From the sequence record NC_019724.1: 43,741 nt of DNA; one strand, 5' to 3'. Shown here in pieces: positions 4,900 through 41,638 of this stretch. How positions within the stretch are numbered: the stretch's first letter is position 1; every line of letters starts with the position of its first letter. The translations under genes were made by a program, and so were the position numbers. The notes beneath the pieces were generated by a model. The model saw only the letters and a program-made list of their open reading frames with translations, was not told the DNA's origin and made no database searches. This DNA is from Escherichia phage HK578.

Positions 4900-5011
4900 C
4901 CCGTCTGCGGACCCCGACGAAGATTTGATGATTGACGTGAAAAATATGGAATGCGGGGCTAAGCTAAGGGCGCAGGTGCTGGAGTTGCAGCAAATAATTA
5001 AGGGGCCGTAA
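4781..5011 (+). CDS. putative o-spanin (Rz1-like lipoprotein)
   Basis: ATG 4781 with SD AAGAGG; signal peptide MLRALTALIVVLMLSAC with lipobox LSAC; mature part short, Pro-rich, with Cys; in +1 frame overlapping 3' end of 4570..4899. Confidence 0.55.
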   Translation: MLRALTALIVVLMLSACGSSNVPLMPLTESALRPPCKFDNPSADPDEDLMIDVKNMECGAKLRAQVLELQQIIKGP

Positions 5012-5022
5012 TGGCCCCTTTT
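5002..5022 (+). terminator. intrinsic terminator after spanin genes
   Basis: GGGGCC-gtaat-GGCCCC followed by TTTT; stop codon of o-spanin lies in the loop; second hairpin GGGGC-tttc-GCCCC at ~5053-5066. Confidence 0.6.
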
Positions 5023-5077
5023 CGTCAGTCTCATTTTTGTGTCCTCGTTGTTGGGGCTTTCGCCCCGTTTGGTTTAG

Positions 5078-5485
5078 TTAAAGTGCTTCAAGAATCTCGT
5101 AAAACTTATTCGCCAGCGCCTGGCGACGTTCGAATTTCTCAGTGATAACCAATTCAGGGCGGTTAAATCTCTTTGCGTGTATGTTCCAATTGTGGATTTC
5201 CGTCTCCATTATTTTCTTACGGTTATAGTCGGTGTTTTTGATGCTAAATTCCTTGATTGCGTTGTTAAGAAAATCAGTCATATACTCAATGTCGGATATC
5301 GTAACTTCGAACGTGCGGGCTTCGATTACGCTATTGGTGCGAAGTACGACGACGCCGCCGTGGTAGGTGTCGACTACCATATACTTGTAAGTCACCCCGT
5401 CCCACTCCGGATCGAAAGGGCGACCAAATACGTCGTCGGCTTTCCAGACTTTCAGGTACGGTGTTTCTTTGATTAATGTTGGCAT
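5078..5485 (-). CDS. hypothetical protein (moron)
   Basis: 135-aa ORF from ATG 5485 (MPTLIKETPYLK...) with SD GAAGGAAAA; opposite strand to flanking head genes; appears AT-richer than neighbours by eye. Confidence 0.6.
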   Translation of the reverse strand: MPTLIKETPYLKVWKADDVFGRPFDPEWDGVTYKYMVVDTYHGGVVVLRTNSVIEARTFEVTISDIEYMTDFLNNAIKEFSIKNTDYNRKKIMETEIHNWNIHAKRFNRPELVITEKFERRQALANKFYEILEAL

Positions 5486-5520
5486 CTTGTTTTCCTTCAT
5501 ATCTCTGTTGGTGTGCAACC

Positions 5521-5550
5521 AATATACTGCAACCAATATCCGCAATGCAA
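5521..5550 (-). promoter_or_regulatory. sigma70-like promoter for 5078..5485
   Basis: minus strand TTGCAT-18 nt-TATATT; spacer and -10 overlap two TGCAACCAAT copies (5514-5523, 5528-5537). Confidence 0.4.
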
Positions 5551-5639
5551 GCGAATTTTGCGATTATTTTTATCGCTGATAATATTAAGGCGTGAAGTCA
5601 AGCGGGTGGCCCGCTTTGCCACAATCCCAGGGGGATAGC

Positions 5640-11109: not shown

Positions 11110-11115
11110 CGAAGC

Positions 11116-11381
11116 AGGACAGGCGGGACGTCCCGTTTTATCCCGTTCTGTCCCGCACCTCTAAAAACTGCATATTTACCCACTCCTATTGCATAAATTA
11201 AAAGCGGGACAGGGGTGCTGTCCCGATCTGTCCCACCCCCAAAATGTGAATAGTTATGCAGTTTTCGCGCATAAAACAAACGGGACAAAAAGCGGGACAG
11301 AATTGGGCGGGACAAAGCGGGACGTCCCGCCGCCCCCATCAGTGCTGCCGCGTGTTTCAGCCGATCGGGACAGGCGGGACA
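11116..11381. repeat. GGGACA / TGTCCC iteron array (copy A region)
   Basis: about 13 copies of GGGACA or its complement in ~270 bp, including palindromes GGGACGTCCC (11125-11134, 11318-11327) and pairs spaced 9-12 nt. Confidence 0.7.
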
Positions 11382-11435
11382 AAGCCCAGTCTTTCAGACT
11401 AGACGGGGGTCATTGGCCCCCCTCGTCTGAGACTG
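11246..11435 (+). repeat. ~190-bp dispersed repeat, copy A
   Basis: aligns by eye at roughly 85 percent identity to 38348..38539: shared blocks tgaatagttatgcagtttt, cgggacaaaaagcgggacaga, gggcgggacaaagcgggac, gggacaggcgggacaaa and the terminal hairpin. Confidence 0.75.
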
Positions 11436-11503
11436 AATAAGGTTTGTTTTAAATTCGCTGATACAATGTCAACCGGCAACTGCATAAAAAGGGGGACTGC
11501 ATA

Positions 11504-20369: not shown

Positions 20370-20389
20370 AAAGCCCCGCCAGGGGCTTT
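20370..20389. terminator. bidirectional intrinsic terminator
   Basis: AAAGCCCC-gcca-GGGGCTTT between convergent J-like gene (+) and 20388..21320 (-). Confidence 0.6.
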
Positions 20390-21320
20390 AGTACATGTTG
20401 GGGAGGTACGGCAGCGGAGTTGGGATCGTAACGTCGGGTCTGTTGCCGATTTCGTACCTTACAATTCGTGAGCCAGTTCCCGACCTTACATATCCGCCGC
20501 TCATAACCACGCCTTTGTTTCTTAGTTCCTTGTAGGCGGGTATAGCCCTTGTATTGAACCCACACCTTAGTATTGGGAAGTAGGAGTCTCCAATATACTG
20601 ATTGCTACCCGACAGACTTATAAACCCAGACACAATAAGTGGTCTGGTAACTGTTGAAAGTGTACAGGCGCCTTTGTGGTTAAATATGTTTAACCCCGGC
20701 CCCGGCACGGGCGCAACCATCTGGAAAATAACCAAATCCATAGTAACACTTCCGGGTGTGTGCCCGGTATCATTTGTGTTTATGTTTGTGCATATCAACC
20801 GATTAACACCGTCGTACTCAACTGAAACACCAGAATTATCCCACCTGCCGAACGGTATGCCGTATATTGGAAGGGTGTAACTATCATGGAATGATATAGT
20901 TTGAGCAAATTTGCAGACAAGCAACCTGTCAGTTGTGGTTATCGATGTGAAATCCGTGCTGTCGGCAACGTAAAGCCCCTGCCCTGATGACCTAAGAACC
21001 TCAACTACAGTCCCTGAAAACTGCGTTACGCGGTCTGGATAGCCGTTCTCATAGCCAATAGATATTGTTCCGCTGGATTCTGTTGAAGAAAAGCCCTTTA
21101 TATAATAAACCTCAACACCACGATCTAGTTCGAAGGAGTATGCGCCATTGTTCGGCAGAAGAAACCTTGAAGCCCCTTCATTACCTTGAATAGGGAATGA
21201 CTTGCTAAACCCGCCACTTGAAACATTGAAGTTCCCCGCAAAATTCAAGGCACGCATACCCGCGGTGATTGTCATCGGGTTGCGTCCGTCATTAAGATCA
21301 ATGTAGATACCTTGTGCCAT
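20388..21320 (-). CDS. hypothetical Ser/Gly/Thr-rich protein (candidate adhesin/receptor-binding protein)
   Basis: 310 aa from ATG 21320 ([12 protein letters not shown]...) with SD GGGAG; start overlaps stop of upstream lipoprotein gene (TAATG); opposite strand to tail genes; function inferred from context only. Confidence 0.55.
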   Translation of the reverse strand: MAQGIYIDLNDGRNPMTITAGMRALNFAGNFNVSSGGFSKSFPIQGNEGASRFLLPNNGAYSFELDRGVEVYYIKGFSSTESSGTISIGYENGYPDRVTQFSGTVVEVLRSSGQGLYVADSTDFTSITTTDRLLVCKFAQTISFHDSYTLPIYGIPFGRWDNSGVSVEYDGVNRLICTNINTNDTGHTPGSVTMDLVIFQMVAPVPGPGLNIFNHKGACTLSTVTRPLIVSGFISLSGSNQYIGDSYFPILRCGFNTRAIPAYKELRNKGVVMSGGYVRSGTGSRIVRYEIGNRPDVTIPTPLPYLPNMY

Positions 21321-21550
21321 TAGTTCCACTCCCGAGAGCCATAATCACGAACTGAGCCACCATGCCCTTTAATTCCGTCATAACGAATATCAACTTCACC
21401 CGCCGGAACAACTACACCGCCTTTCCATTTAGCTACACATACGCCGCTTGCTTGCGTCGCGCACCAACCATCCGTACGCGGGCCAGAAGAGCAACCAACA
21501 GCCATGACTACTATCGCGGCAATGATTGCAGATTTGATTAAAGTTTTCAT
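21320..21550 (-). CDS. small lipoprotein (candidate superinfection-exclusion protein)
   Basis: 76 aa from ATG 21550 with SD AGGAGA; signal peptide [20 protein letters not shown] with lipobox-like AVGC; mature part has 3 Cys. Confidence 0.6.
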
Positions 21551-21630
21551 GGTATCATCTCCTGTATTAGGTTGAGTTTTAGTATTGCACCACTCAACCA
21601 AGAATGCAACCAATTTATGAGGATTCAGCT

Positions 21631-23472
21631 ATGGCAGCGGGTACACTATCCGTAACGAATAACAGCAAGGCGGTTGTCGGTGTAGGAACGACGTTTACCG
21701 CGTTTAATGCTGGCGACTTTTTATCGCTGGTAGTCGGGCAAGTGCCCTACACTGTTGCGATCGCGTCCGTCGAAAGCGACACCGCGCTTACGTTGGTGCT
21801 GCCGTTCGACGGCCCAACGGCAACTGGCCTCGCGTGGGATGGCGTTAAGCGCGATACCATGTCGCTGGCAACGATGGGTGTAACCGTACAGGCACAGAAA
21901 GCGTTGCGCTTGATGATCGCGGACGAAAACAACTGGCGCGCAATCTTCGGAGACGAAGAAGAGATCACGGTAACGCTGCCGAACGGGCAAGTTATGCAGG
22001 GTATGTCGTGGGGCTATCTGTCGCAATTGCTGAAGGAAGTTGACCCCGTTGAAATGCGCAACCTGCAACAACAAGCCACTACCGCGAAGAACGACGCCGT
22101 TACCGCAAAGAATCAAGCCGTTACCGCGAAGAACGACGCCGTTACCGCGAAAACGGGCGCGGAGACGGCGCGCGACCAGGCTAATACCGCAAAGACCGGT
22201 GCAGAGACGGCGCGCGACCAGGCTAATACCGCGAAAACGGGCGCGGAGACAGCACGGGATCAATCGCTGACTTACCGTAACCAGGCCGAGCAATTTGCTA
22301 ACAGCGTTAATCCGGATAACATTCTGGATCAAGTCGGTGTTGGTGCAAACCCGCGGCACTTACCGGATATTAACGCGCCTGTGAAGGGATTCTGCCGTAT
22401 TATCGCGGGTCAAACCGCGGGGGCGAATGGGTTTAGCGGGGCGGGATGGATCGCCGGTTACGACGGCAGCCAGTCTTATACCGGTATGTTTGTGCAGCCC
22501 GACGGTAACCGCATTTTCGCAGGCGGAAAATCACCAGCTATCGCTGGCGGGTTGTGGCAGTGGCATGAGGTGCCGACTATAGATCGAGCTAATACATTTA
22601 CGCAATCGCAAGAAATTTTAGCGTCATACCCGGGCCTTGAACTGACAACAACCGCGCTCAATAACAACAATCTAGGGAAGACAATCCTTATTGAAAATGA
22701 TGCGGGCGATGCTCTTAACTTTTTCTACAAGATGCTCGACGACGACACGGGACGTTACACCATTAGACTACCGAAGCCTGGGTATAAGACGACGATGACG
22801 ATCGGGCTTGACGGAGGGTTGGCTCCAAACGGCAACTCGTTTAACATCGGTGCCGTTCAAGGATTGGACTTCAGTGTCGGGCAGCAAGGGTGGCGCGCGG
22901 TGGGCGGTGCGTGGACTAATGGCCCAACCAGCGGCAATCTGTTCGGGGCAGTATTCACCCATGCGGTGCAGGGTCTGAATGTCGGGGGGTATGACGCTAA
23001 TGGCACGGATAACCACTGGTTTATACAGCGCTTTTACGACACGTCGGCGAATATCTTTACGCGCGTGCAAGTGAACGACTACCCGTGGGGTAACTGGTAT
23101 AAAGTCACCACGTCCGCTGTGTCGGATGAACGCCTGAAGGATATCAAGGGCAATCTGAATGTGGAGGGTGCGCTGGATAACATCAACCGCATGGAGTTTA
23201 AACTGTTCTCGTTTAAAAATGAGAAGTCAGAAAGCAAACAGCCTGTTACGCGTCGCGGTGTTATCAGCCAGCAGATCCGTCTTATTGATAAAGAGTACAC
23301 AACGGAAGTAGGCGGATTCTACCACCTGGACCAGACCCCGATGTTGTTAGATGGTCTGGCGGCAATCAAGGCTCTGCGCGCGCGTGACGAAGCAAATAAA
23401 GCTGAAATCGCGGAATTGAAAGCTGCCGTGGCGGAATTGAAAGCTGCCGTAGCGGCGCTGTCTAAAGCATAA
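21631..23472 (+). CDS. tail fiber protein with C-terminal intramolecular chaperone (S74-like) domain
   Basis: ATG 21631 with SD GAGGA; nine TA(K/R)xxAx heptads; SDERLKDIKG motif near C-terminus (auto-cleavage signature of S74 chaperone domains); C-terminal AELKAAV repeats. Confidence 0.75.
   Translation: MAAGTLSVTNNSKAVVGVGTTFTAFNAGDFLSLVVGQVPYTVAIASVESDTALTLVLPFDGPTATGLAWDGVKRDTMSLATMGVTVQAQKALRLMIADENNWRAIFGDEEEITVTLPNGQVMQGMSWGYLSQLLKEVDPVEMRNLQQQATTAKNDAVTAKNQAVTAKNDAVTAKTGAETARDQANTAKTGAETARDQANTAKTGAETARDQSLTYRNQAEQFANSVNPDNILDQVGVGANPRHLPDINAPVKGFCRIIAGQTAGANGFSGAGWIAGYDGSQSYTGMFVQPDGNRIFAGGKSPAIAGGLWQWHEVPTIDRANTFTQSQEILASYPGLELTTTALNNNNLGKTILIENDAGDALNFFYKMLDDDTGRYTIRLPKPGYKTTMTIGLDGGLAPNGNSFNIGAVQGLDFSVGQQGWRAVGGAWTNGPTSGNLFGAVFTHAVQGLNVGGYDANGTDNHWFIQRFYDTSANIFTRVQVNDYPWGNWYKVTTSAVSDERLKDIKGNLNVEGALDNINRMEFKLFSFKNEKSESKQPVTRRGVISQQIRLIDKEYTTEVGGFYHLDQTPMLLDGLAAIKALRARDEANKAEIAELKAAVAELKAAVAALSKA
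22081..22263 (+). repeat. in-frame tandem repeats inside tail fiber gene
   Basis: 3 x 21-nt units (TAKNDAV / TAKNQAV) followed by 3 x 42-nt units (TAKTGAETARDQAN), nearly identical at nucleotide level. Confidence 0.8.
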
Positions 23473-24705: not shown

Positions 24706-24735
24706 ACTATAGTGCAACCAACCTATTGGTTGCAA
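24706..24735 (-). promoter_or_regulatory. sigma70-like promoter overlapping palindromic operator-like site
   Basis: minus strand TTGCAA-18 nt-TATAGT; embedded perfect inverted repeat TGCAACCAA-ccta-TTGGTTGCA (24713-24734). Confidence 0.4.
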
Positions 24736-35367: not shown

Positions 35368-35396
35368 ATATTAGATTGGTTGCAGAAGGGAGTCAA
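35368..35396 (-). promoter_or_regulatory. early leftward sigma70-like promoter
   Basis: minus strand TTGACT-17 nt-TAATAT; ATTGGTTGCA (35375-35384) lies in the spacer. Confidence 0.5.
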
Positions 35397-35574: not shown

Positions 35575-36003
35575 ATGAGCACAAACGAGACCTTAAATCG
35601 CTGGAACCATAAGAAATGGCCCCACCAAATTAACCGCGCCACCGAGGATGATAATACCATCGCTTTCGGCGATATGGACGCGGACCCTATGACCCCTGAG
35701 CAAATAGCCGCCGATGTGCTGTCAATGGACCGACATACGGCTTCGGAAATAATCGTTGCTCTGATAAACGAAATAAGCGGCAGCTATAACGAACTGAATG
35801 ACCTGTACGCGGAGCTTGACCTGTTGAAAGGTGGCGCTATCGCAGCGGTGCGTAAATCCGAAGAGGCAGCACGCGAGATGGCTATCGCCCGCGAGAAATA
35901 TATGCCTGTCGTTAAGCGCCTGCGTGCGGAAGGCTTGTCATGGAATCAGATCGCCGAGATGACTGGAATCAACCGTTCTACAATCCGCCAGTGGGCTAAA
36001 TGA
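35575..36003 (+). CDS. putative HTH DNA-binding regulator
   Basis: 142 aa; C-terminal helix-turn-helix LSWNQIAEMTGINRSTIRQWAK; first gene downstream of the rightward promoter. Confidence 0.55.
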   Translation: MSTNETLNRWNHKKWPHQINRATEDDNTIAFGDMDADPMTPEQIAADVLSMDRHTASEIIVALINEISGSYNELNDLYAELDLLKGGAIAAVRKSEEAAREMAIAREKYMPVVKRLRAEGLSWNQIAEMTGINRSTIRQWAK

Positions 36004-38347: not shown

Positions 38348-38539
38348 GTGAATAGTTATGCAGTTTTATTGCATAAAGCAAGCGGGACAAAAAGCGGGAC
38401 AGACCAGGGGCGGGACAAAGCGGGACAGCACCCCCTGTCCCGCCCGGCTGGCGCGGCTCTCAGAGGAGCGGGACAGGCGGGACAAACCCCAGTCTTTCAG
38501 ACTAGACGGGGGGTCAATGGCCCCCCTCGTCTGAGACTG
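38348..38539 (+). repeat. ~190-bp dispersed repeat, copy B (GGGACA iterons + hairpin)
   Basis: seven GGGACA/TGTCCC copies at 38384-38484 and hairpin 38490-38539; homologous to 11246..11435. Confidence 0.75.
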
Positions 38540-38698
38540 CATAAAATCCCGGATTGCATAATACACGGCAGCATGTTGCGGATTGCGGTCGTCGCTGAAC
38601 TAGGCAACCAATGCGAGTTGCAGAATGGTGGGTGAAAAATGCAGTTTGCAGTCACAGCAGATAGCGATCAACTTTTTCATGCGCGTGATTAATATTGG

Positions 38699-38727
38699 TT
38701 GCATCCGCCCCAGCACCCTGCTATATT
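38699..38727 (+). promoter_or_regulatory. sigma70-like promoter for 38755 gene
   Basis: TTGCAT-17 nt-TATATT; ATTGGTTGCA copies at 38694-38703 and 38725-38734; downstream 22-mer identical to the one upstream of 5078..5485. Confidence 0.45.
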
Positions 38728-38754
38728 GGTTGCACACCAACAGGAGGGCGGAAC

Positions 38755-38934
38755 ATGAAAACCGAAATGGTTGATAAGCACGAAATCAAGATCGGAGATA
38801 CGGTAGTCCACAACGGGGAGCTTCGCACTGTGTGCAAGCGAGCGTTTAGCATCGATGAATTTATGGGCCTGCTACTTTGGGGCGACAGCTACCGTTTAGG
38901 GTATAAACTGGTTGAGAGGGTTACGGAACTATGA
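38755..38934 (+). CDS. hypothetical small protein
   Basis: 59 aa from ATG 38755 (MKTEMVDKHEIK...) with SD AGGAGGG. Confidence 0.45.
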   Translation: MKTEMVDKHEIKIGDTVVHNGELRTVCKRAFSIDEFMGLLLWGDSYRLGYKLVERVTEL

Positions 38935-40918: not shown

Positions 40919-41160
40919 TTATCACCGTCCTGTTGTTTGTTATCATAGGGGCTTCGTCCCTGTTTAACGTGTATGCGCCGTCCGTCCAGGATGGCATCTT
41001 GGGCCGGGTGCTGTATCTGTTAACGGCAATGGTCTGTATTATCGGATTGCTGCAAACAGGAGACGTATCAGATACCACCTGGACCGCGTTAATCTGGCTG
41101 TTTGCATTGCGCACCCTGCGTAATGCTGTTTTGAATGGGGTAAAACATGCGATTCAGTGA
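40915..41160 (+). CDS. small membrane protein (second holin or antiholin-like)
   Basis: 81 aa, ~3 hydrophobic segments, SD GGGGGGTG, overlaps both neighbours. Confidence 0.5.
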   Translation: MIITVLLFVIIGASSLFNVYAPSVQDGILGRVLYLLTAMVCIIGLLQTGDVSDTTWTALIWLFALRTLRNAVLNGVKHAIQ

Positions 41161-41638
41161 TAACGGTCTACGATTTACGGCAGCATGGGAGACTTTCAGC
41201 CCAGTGCCGTATTTCGCGACTAAGAAAGAGCAGGCCCGCGGCCTGTACACCTGGGGTTATGGTCATACTGGCACTAATCCGCCTCGAAGCATTACCCGCG
41301 AGGAAGCGCTGGAACTGCTCAAGCGCGATGTGGCGTATGCCGAGGACTGGGTGAACAAATACGCGCATAAGAGCATTAACCAGGCGCAATTCGACGCGCT
41401 GGTGGACCTGGTAATCAATGCCGGTCCGGGGCCGATCGTACCGGATGACGTCGCGAATGATTTCGATGATGCGGTGCGACTGGGAGACTGGGCGAAGGTC
41501 CGTGCTACGCTGCCGCAGTTCCGAAAACAAGGCGGTGAAGTGCTTAAGGGTCTGGTGCGCCGTGCAATCGGCAGACAGGCGCTATTCGATGGTAAGCAGT
41601 GGGACGTTGCCGAGCGAATCGGTCGTAACGCTGCATAA
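41147..41638 (+). CDS. endolysin (GH24 lysozyme)
   Basis: 163 aa; catalytic-region pattern WETFSPVPYF...YTWGYGHTG and INQAQFDALVDLVINAG resembling lambda R / T4 e-type lysozymes. Confidence 0.85.
   Translation: MRFSDNGLRFTAAWETFSPVPYFATKKEQARGLYTWGYGHTGTNPPRSITREEALELLKRDVAYAEDWVNKYAHKSINQAQFDALVDLVINAGPGPIVPDDVANDFDDAVRLGDWAKVRATLPQFRKQGGEVLKGLVRRAIGRQALFDGKQWDVAERIGRNAA

Follow-up and report, generated by a model that had tools for sequence, protein, structure and literature searches.

The gene for a 135-aa protein that lies antiparallel to the head genes of Escherichia phage HK578 is very probably a real, non-structural and dispensable accessory gene, which occupies a swappable slot in the genome. 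We analysed the whole stretch of DNA (NC_019724.1; 43,741 nucleotides; hereafter, the window) and compared the locus with those of other phages. As a whole account, we consider it reasonably probable that the gene is one allele of a genus-wide minus-strand accessory unit and that its dispensable, cytoplasmic product acts on a host factor. The positions of the features are collected in Table 1.

Table 1 Features of the 135-aa cassette, its partner promoter and the recurrent motif in the window, as read from the sequence
Feature	Position	Strand	Remarks
Terminator-like hairpin	5001..5021		8-bp GC stem, U-rich tails on both strands; annotated terminator in PTXU06
Nmad5 remnant, ATG and 4 codons (MRLTK)	5020..5034	minus	fused directly to the terminator
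Hairpin GGGGC-UUUC-GCCCC	5053..5066		just 3' of the 135-aa stop codon
135-aa CDS	5078..5485	minus	o-spanin gene on one side, head-scaffold gene on the other; Dhillonvirus (HK578-like) genome
Shine-Dalgarno AAGGA	5493..5497	minus	7 nt 5' of the ATG; from the sequence
22-mer TATATTGGTTGCACACCAACAG	5505..5526	minus	predicted -10 hexamer and start region
18-nt spacer and predicted -35	5527..5550	minus	second ATATTGGTTGCA copy at 5528-5539
AT-rich tract	5551..5585	minus	upstream of the -35; invariant across relatives (alignment)
Partner promoter	38692..38743	plus	ATATTGGTTGCAT, 17 nt, 22-mer; upstream of the 59-aa ORF at 38755
TTGGTTGC sites (examples)	21606, 24714/24726, 25952, 28894, 32785/32801, 35376, 38288/38323, 38695/38726, 42100

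In the list of open reading frames, the minus-strand frame spans 5078..5545 and encodes 155 aa from a TTG codon. We assigned the start to the ATG at 5485, which gives the 135-aa protein with the N-terminus MPTLIKE. The 155-aa form and a 140-aa form from the ATG at 5500 were rejected because, in the alignment with phage PTXU06, an extra A shifts the upstream ATG out of frame and the MPTLIKE start is retained. The PTXU06 homologue is annotated as 'similar to HK578_006'. Among the copies from four Dhillonviruses, dN/dS is 0.08-0.15, which indicates that the gene is under purifying selection, and 29 residues are invariant across the protein family down to 37% identity. Therefore, the frame is a real protein-coding gene. 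The preliminary description had placed an antiparallel 135-aa gene among the head genes, and the reading frame, the start codon, the Shine-Dalgarno sequence and the selection on the gene all bear this out. The neighbouring two spanins and scaffold protein are so named in the RefSeq record of phage EP23, and the o-spanin possesses a lipobox (MLSAC).

The gene had also been described as AT-rich relative to its flanks. Its GC content is 0.449 against 0.545 for the genome, which places it within the lowest 0.9% of 408-nt windows; the genome-wide minimum 408-nt window starts at about 5180, inside the gene. The values are low at the first and second codon positions (GC1, z = -2.3; GC2, z = -3.3) and ordinary at the third (GC3, z = -1.0). 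The codon adaptation index, with the phage's own genes as the reference, is ordinary as well (0.716 vs 0.703 +/- 0.047), and K, N, I, E, F and Y are abundant residues of the protein. Therefore, the AT-richness is caused by the amino-acid composition. The local GC is distinct but the codon usage is native, and the composition of the gene gives no evidence for a recent foreign origin. The accessory status of the gene rests on its presence/absence pattern and not on its composition.

The 2-kb region matches 157 phage records with 90-97% identity, almost all of which are Escherichia or Shigella Dhillonvirus. The flanking head genes are 92-97% identical among these approximately 157 Dhillonvirus records, most of which lack the 135-aa gene. 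By tblastn, the gene is present in 5 of about 157 Dhillonvirus records (about 3%), which represent three phages. Three other genes are found at the locus. Full-length Nmad5, a 254-aa protein in the relatives (Pfam PF18757, E = 2e-58), is encoded in 146 phage records (about 93% of relatives); the gene for a 104-aa protein is found in about 61 records at >=90% identity, and that for a 170-aa beta-clamp-like protein in about 16 at >=80% identity (tblastn). Thus, the presence/absence comparison suggested in the preliminary description marks the 135-aa gene as an accessory gene and not a head component, and the gene lacks the genus-wide conservation with the head genes that is expected of a virion or morphogenesis protein.

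The arrangement of these cargoes was compared in four GenBank relatives and 14 IMG/VR contigs. Nmad5 alone was found in contigs L007, L011, L012 and L013, Nmad5 with the clamp-like protein in EP23 and L008, and Nmad5 with the 104-aa protein in BMA1, L014, L016 and L017. The clamp-like protein was present alone in L009 and L010 and together with the 104-aa protein in L018. Nmad5 accompanies the 135-aa protein in PTXU06, SM_W22, L015 and L019 (also in Zar3M, as inferred from identical coordinates), and the 135-aa protein stands alone in HK578. In none of the 18 relatives examined are the spanin and scaffold genes adjacent: all have the cassette with one or two of the four cargo genes. The idea of a one-off insertion must therefore give way to that of a genus-wide unit with variable cargo. 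Divergence of the cargoes as alleles of one gene was ruled out by BLASTP and by hhalign probabilities of <1%. The promoter, leader and terminator are retained across Dhillonvirus loci whatever the cargo, and an exact 21-mer lies at the same distance from the scaffold gene in 15 of the 18 loci. Furthermore, the ribosome-binding-site leader (…ATGAAGGAAAACAAGATG; MKENKM...) is common to the 135-aa gene and the unrelated 104-aa gene, so that the exchange boundary should be essentially at the start codon. Sequence comparison thus indicates that unrelated cargo genes are exchanged between a fixed promoter and leader and a fixed terminator.

Several observations on the individual cargoes and the flanking region should be mentioned. 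The SM_W22 homologue (L003 1834-2352, minus strand) is 172 aa long, with a 37-aa in-frame tandem duplication in helices 2-3 (residues about 89-125). The 170-aa cargo (EP23p08; L002 1872-2384, minus strand) shows a weak similarity to the DnaN beta-clamp's central domain (Pfam, E = 7e-4; TIGR00663, E = 2e-5; neither match reaches the cut-off). Its public annotation is inconsistent ('DNA polymerase III beta subunit' or 'RusA-like resolvase'), and its homologues are found in 249 phage records. A homologue of the 104-aa cargo is also present in the Ackermannviridae phage YX22, whose locus proved uninformative about the 135-aa gene. About 20 nt upstream of the scaffold start, a hairpin (AAGCGGG-TGG-CCCGCTT, 5599-5617) is conserved in the genus; its closing A-T pair is replaced by G-C in PTXU06 and SM_W22, a compensatory change. 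This hairpin may act within the 5' UTR of the scaffold/capsid mRNA.

Downstream of the 135-aa gene, the preliminary description had placed flanking hairpin terminators. Two hairpins do exist, but both are 3' of the gene, and U-rich tails are present only at 5001-5021. The proximal hairpin has no U-tract on the minus strand, and therefore read-through is likely; its equivalent in the relatives lies between the 135-aa gene and Nmad5. The fold of the minus-strand RNA of the hairpin region has a z of -4.3. The distal hairpin, a bidirectional element of the intrinsic-terminator type, would stop transcription of the plus-strand spanin operon as well as that of the minus-strand cassette. The MRLTK remnant and the 135-aa stop codon are 44 nt apart, the usual spacing. 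The junction (about 5019-5024) falls within CTTTT, and in PTXU06 the segment that HK578 lacks has this pentamer at either end. These features indicate that the rest of the 254-aa Nmad5 gene was lost in HK578 by a microhomology deletion. Thus, the single-gene state of the HK578 cassette is derived, and the 135-aa gene stands alone because of the Nmad5 deletion.

Outside Dhillonvirus, homologues were found only in phage genomes and phage-like contigs, with several different backbones. Those of Serratia siphophages lie where the tail module meets the replication module, and that of Erwinia phage Snitter (Drexlerviridae) belongs to a small-gene array close to the genome end. In metagenomic phage contigs the homologues are usually located within strings of unnamed genes for 50-150-aa proteins. 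Some homologues are near Dam or other DNA methylase genes: one contig carries a P22-type portal and a DNA methylase, and in T1-like contigs the homologue is near Dam and a T1-type holin. The distantly related homologue P0023, like the HK578 gene, is oriented divergently from head genes. Searches of 5,426 complete E. coli genomes (blastn, distant mode) and of PLSDB plasmids (tblastn) gave no homologue, and accordingly the gene was not found in prophages.

These distributions bear on the idea that the 135-aa protein is a partner of Nmad5 (a modulator, antidote or specificity factor) which was orphaned in HK578 by the Nmad5 deletion. In PTXU06, SM_W22, L015, L019 and Zar3M (the last by identical coordinates), Nmad5 follows the 135-aa gene after 44 nt within one transcription unit, and the idea also fits the report that nmad5 could not be cloned, apparently through toxicity (PMC11846954). 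However, most Nmad5-bearing Dhillonviruses do not possess the 135-aa gene (146 records vs 5), as is also the case in the four contigs where Nmad5 is alone (L007, L011-L013). Conversely, no Nmad5 was found within 4-5 kb of the Serratia, Erwinia and metagenomic homologues, and no Serratia phage is among the named organism groups of the Nmad5 matches. Moreover, the HK578 gene is intact and under purifying selection without Nmad5. We therefore consider such a partnership improbable.

Upstream of the gene, a sigma70-like promoter can be read from the sequence: -35 TTGCAT at 5545-5550, an 18-nt spacer and -10 TATATT at 5521-5526. A simple consensus promoter scan did not call it because TTGCAT shares only three of six bases with TTGACA. 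The exact 22-mer which had been reported to be common to this promoter and that of the gene at 38755 was found at exactly these two sites, 5505-5526 (minus strand) and 38722-38743 (plus strand). In shuffled sequences, no match to TATATTGGTTGCACACCAACAG was obtained even when three mismatches were allowed. The 22-mer contains a palindrome, TTGGT-N5-ACCAA, that spans the predicted start site and is a putative operator. The partner promoter consists of -35 TTGCAT (38699-38704), a 17-nt spacer and -10 TATATT (38722-38727). Two ATATTGGTTGCA motifs are present in the cassette promoter, and the partner promoter likewise has a second copy. The AT-rich tract upstream of the cassette -35 is a possible UP element and forms part of a divergent control region common to the cassette and the scaffold gene. 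As for the promoter that had been ascribed to the gene itself, a promoter-like element does exist in the gene's orientation, but it belongs to the genus-wide unit and not to this gene. EP23 retains a near-identical sequence, TAGATTGGTTGCACACCAACAT, at the site equivalent to 38722. The gene right after this second promoter copy differs between the phages: 59 aa in HK578 (38755) and 108 aa in EP23 (L030 1250-1576). Judging from these sequences, one promoter/operator module may front two variable slots.

The shorter motif TTGGTTGC occurs 19 times in the genome against 1.96 expected, that is, about ten-fold. Most copies are located at sigma70-like promoters, where they lie over the -35 (giving TTGCAx), in the spacer or right after the -10/+1, and a perfect palindrome, TGCAACCAAcctaTTGGTTGCA, is present at 24713-24734. 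The placement of the motif and the palindromes suggest that the sites are more than a promoter consensus and serve a dimeric regulator as operators; TTGGTTGC is probably the operator of a regulator. The motif-bearing promoters are in the non-structural half of the genome, including that upstream of gp45-46; the one at 35376 precedes an operon for an HTH protein and helicase-primase. The HTH proteins of the phage include the 142-aa product of 35575-36003. An OLD-escape deletion in HK578 supports the promoter region of gp45-46 (bioRxiv 10.64898/2026.07.10.737580). Two exceptions lie inside the structural module: the 135-aa cassette and a minus-strand cassette at 20388-21613. We think it likely, from the shared sequence elements, that the 135-aa cassette is co-regulated with the non-structural promoter set. 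The preliminary description had gone further and proposed early co-expression. Co-regulation is well supported at the sequence level, but the label 'early' is only inferred and is insecure because the 38755 operon continues through small uncharacterised genes into the lysis genes (holin, and lysozyme at 41147-41638).

Other elements were observed in the window. The minus-strand cassette 20388-21613, in the tail module, codes for a phage lipoprotein (PF24052) together with a DUF6453 protein and has the motif upstream; it has a GC content of 0.47 and the lowest codon adaptation index in the genome, and it is probably a superinfection-exclusion or receptor-masking unit. A non-coding GCGGGACA/GTCCCG repeat array, with repeats in both orientations, is duplicated at 11113-11440, between the tail-chaperone region and the tape-measure gene, and at 38348-38544, just downstream of the helicase-primase gene. 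The two arrays are 27 kb apart with 80-94% identity, and each ends in the hairpin GGGGGTCAxTGGCCCCCC; it may function as an origin or bind a regulator. A 622-aa ORF (21604-23472) contains degenerate 21-nt tandem repeats (TACCGCGAAGAACGACGCCGT-like, at least five copies) at 22059-22262; its product is probably a lateral tail fibre, one segment of which would be repetitive and of coiled-coil or collagen-like type. A scan of the whole genome against Rfam gave no match.

The 135-aa protein has a molecular mass of 16.1 kDa, a pI of 5.9 and a net charge of about -2, and it contains no transmembrane segment, signal peptide or lipobox. Scans with Pfam, PHROGs and NCBIfam gave no significant match (the hits to TUG-UBL1, DUF6266 and phrog_401, with E about 0.04-0.07, were below the threshold and were disregarded), PADLOC-DB v2 gave no family at E <= 1, and the best E in a sequence-profile search of the PDB was 0.57. 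Three of nine family members match phrog_12277 (best E = 3.7e-5), and the HK578 protein itself is below the threshold; from these matches, phrog_12277, a PHROG without annotation, probably covers part of the family. The homologues have 37-92% identity. A look-up of clusters by the exact sequence did not return the protein, and a word-indexed search gave four clusters. When 1.84 billion representatives were searched exhaustively by HMM, only two more genuine clusters emerged; two other hits (P0007 and P0008) were rejected on inspection as repeat-protein artefacts. With a broader profile, the family comprises about 24 clusters, whose members are all about 130 aa, unnamed and without Pfam domains. 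A scan of all the compared loci with the family profile found no hidden remote copies.

For the structure, we used an AlphaFold2 model from seven sequences (pLDDT 89, pTM 0.65), which replaces a five-sequence model with a pLDDT of 69. In the model, an N-terminal four-stranded sheet with a short helix is followed by three long helices, and the family shares conserved polar motifs (KYxVVDTYHGG, TN, KNTDFN and RRQ). No whole-fold match was found among solved structures. Against viral models, Foldseek gave only two significant matches, both to uncharacterised coliphage proteins: A0A1D8EQL2 of ESCO5 (139 aa; E = 2.5e-5; TM 0.63/0.61 over the full length) and A0A6B9WXQ3 of nieznany (77 aa; E = 4.4e-4; TMt 0.81). 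These proteins share 20-31% identity with the 135-aa protein and were missed by the sequence search. The sensitive profile search and structure prediction that had been proposed thus yielded a confident model and a small phage family without an annotated domain.

We read the gene as a mobile, dispensable accessory gene of phages and propose the following mechanism. Host RNA polymerase would transcribe the cassette together with the other motif-bearing promoters (among them those of the gp45-46 replication operon and the 38755 operon), and expression would occur before, or independently of, that of the head genes. A motif-binding regulator would probably gate the cassette. The product would be a soluble two-domain protein, with an N-terminal four-stranded sheet and a C-terminal three-helix bundle, and would be dispensable for virion assembly. 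Most probably, it would bind a host factor that varies among strains; a component of a defence system is the leading candidate because of the hot-spot behaviour of the locus and the link of the neighbouring cargo to the Tmn system. That the protein acts on a host factor is, on the whole, somewhat probable. A defence or anti-defence role is plausible from the context, and neither homology nor the fold supports any specific function; a specifically anti-defence activity is possible but rather unlikely. A more elaborate version, which we offer as speculation and rate slightly lower still, is that the cassette serves as a 'plug-in' slot, with a fixed promoter, for genes of counter-defence. The 135-aa protein would then represent a new family for anti-defence or for masking of a defence trigger, with a fold absent from solved structures, and would replace Nmad5, the reported route of Tmn sensing; through the 22-mer, its expression would be coupled to a pre-late regulator that the phage itself encodes.

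Could the protein instead protect the infected cell from other phages, as a superinfection-exclusion or inter-phage competition factor in the manner of a classical moron? The putatively autonomous promoter and terminator, the accessory distribution and the place inside a structural module are consistent with this idea, and the location resembles that of the motif-bearing lipoprotein and DUF6453 cassette at 20388-21613. However, the protein is predicted to be soluble and has neither membrane anchor nor lipobox, unlike typical exclusion proteins; it has no PADLOC match, and its gene is absent from prophages, E. coli genomes and plasmids. This role is as improbable as a partnership with Nmad5. 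A phage-internal role, in head morphogenesis, DNA packaging or regulation of the divergent scaffold/capsid operon, might be expected from the adjoining scaffold and capsid genes and the common control region, as well as from the similar position of P0023. Yet about 97% of Dhillonviruses have near-identical head genes without the 135-aa gene, and the homologues in other phages sit in non-structural gene arrays. In addition, the protein has no DNA-binding motif and no Pfam match. The regulatory motif is also conserved in phages without the 135-aa gene, and therefore the protein cannot be the motif-binding factor. Such a role is quite improbable. The least credible idea is that HK578 carries the gene as a decaying or neutral passenger that does nothing at present. 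In favour of this idea, the gene is rare, the adjacent deletion shows that the locus tolerates loss, and the SM_W22 copy carries the 37-aa duplication. Against it, the Dhillonvirus copies show a low dN/dS (0.08-0.15), and the roughly 24 clusters keep the frame intact, with 29 invariant residues and identities down to 37%. Binding to a host factor is the most economical mechanism, and all four alternatives are less likely.

Dhillonviruses are common coliphages in studies of defence systems and are candidates for phage therapy. Nmad5, one of the slot cargoes, determines sensitivity to the Tmn system. A naturally swappable slot with a fixed promoter provides a ready list of candidate host-interaction genes, and the spanin-scaffold slot is a natural insertion site for engineering. 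HK578, as a natural variant without Nmad5 and with the 135-aa gene, is a convenient background for testing both genes. The 135-aa protein itself is a candidate for experiment only.

The closest experimental work concerns Nmad5, which shares the transcription unit and promoter of the 135-aa gene and is unrelated to it in sequence; the Pfam Nmad5 model does not match the 135-aa protein. A K-to-E change in Nmad5 allows Dhillonviruses to escape the Tmn defence system, and deletion of nmad5 did not abolish Tmn sensitivity (PMC11846954). The anti-Tmn gene of Dhillonvirus is ORF35 of phage SMS22, in whose product a 12-aa linker joins two N-terminal helices, one long and one short, to a C-terminal three-stranded sheet flanked by two short helices (PMC11846954). 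We rejected the identity of the 135-aa protein with anti-Tmn because the model has the opposite order, with the sheet at the N-terminus and the helices at the C-terminus (ORF35 was compared by its description), and because the 135-aa gene is at the sixth or seventh gene position by the scaffold gene and ORF35 is elsewhere in the genome. SM_W22 (SMW22) has a 135-aa homologue plus a separate anti-Tmn homologue. The BASEL paper contains no discussion of the spanin-scaffold locus, and the DruSM1 knockout-library paper was set aside because it concerns a different phage. Among known anti-defence families, the 135-aa protein does not have the features of Ocr/ArdA-type DNA mimics, Acb/Tad sponges, KlcA/ArdB or others; for example, DNA mimics have a strong negative charge and the 135-aa protein is not strongly acidic.

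The morons of lambdoid phages (Juhala/Hendrix) are small dispensable genes with their own promoter and terminator in a structural gene cluster, and have a lower GC content than their neighbours. The 135-aa gene resembles them: it is small and apparently dispensable, lies amid structural genes, has a low GC content and possesses a predicted promoter and terminator. As a putative autonomous unit, it would be delimited by TTGCAT-N18-TATATT and an 8-bp GC hairpin with a U-rich tail, both of which are conserved sequence elements. In contrast to a moron, it is not inserted between genes that are adjacent in relatives but belongs to a conserved genus unit with exchangeable cargo, and its codon usage is native. 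Prophage expression and lysogenic conversion do not apply, as the phage is of the virulent type and the gene was not found in prophages. Virulent phages have accessory hot spots, or 'anti-defence islands', in which different, unrelated small genes take turns at the same conserved place. The Dhillonvirus cassette, with fixed flanks and promoter, unrelated alternative cargoes and their combinatorial presence and absence, is of this kind. It differs from anti-defence islands in that no cargo of the slot has demonstrated anti-defence activity, and it resembles them in that the neighbouring cargo Nmad5 has been linked experimentally to a defence system (PMC11846954). The 135-aa gene is an uncharacterised occupant of a known kind of feature, the phage accessory-gene hot spot.
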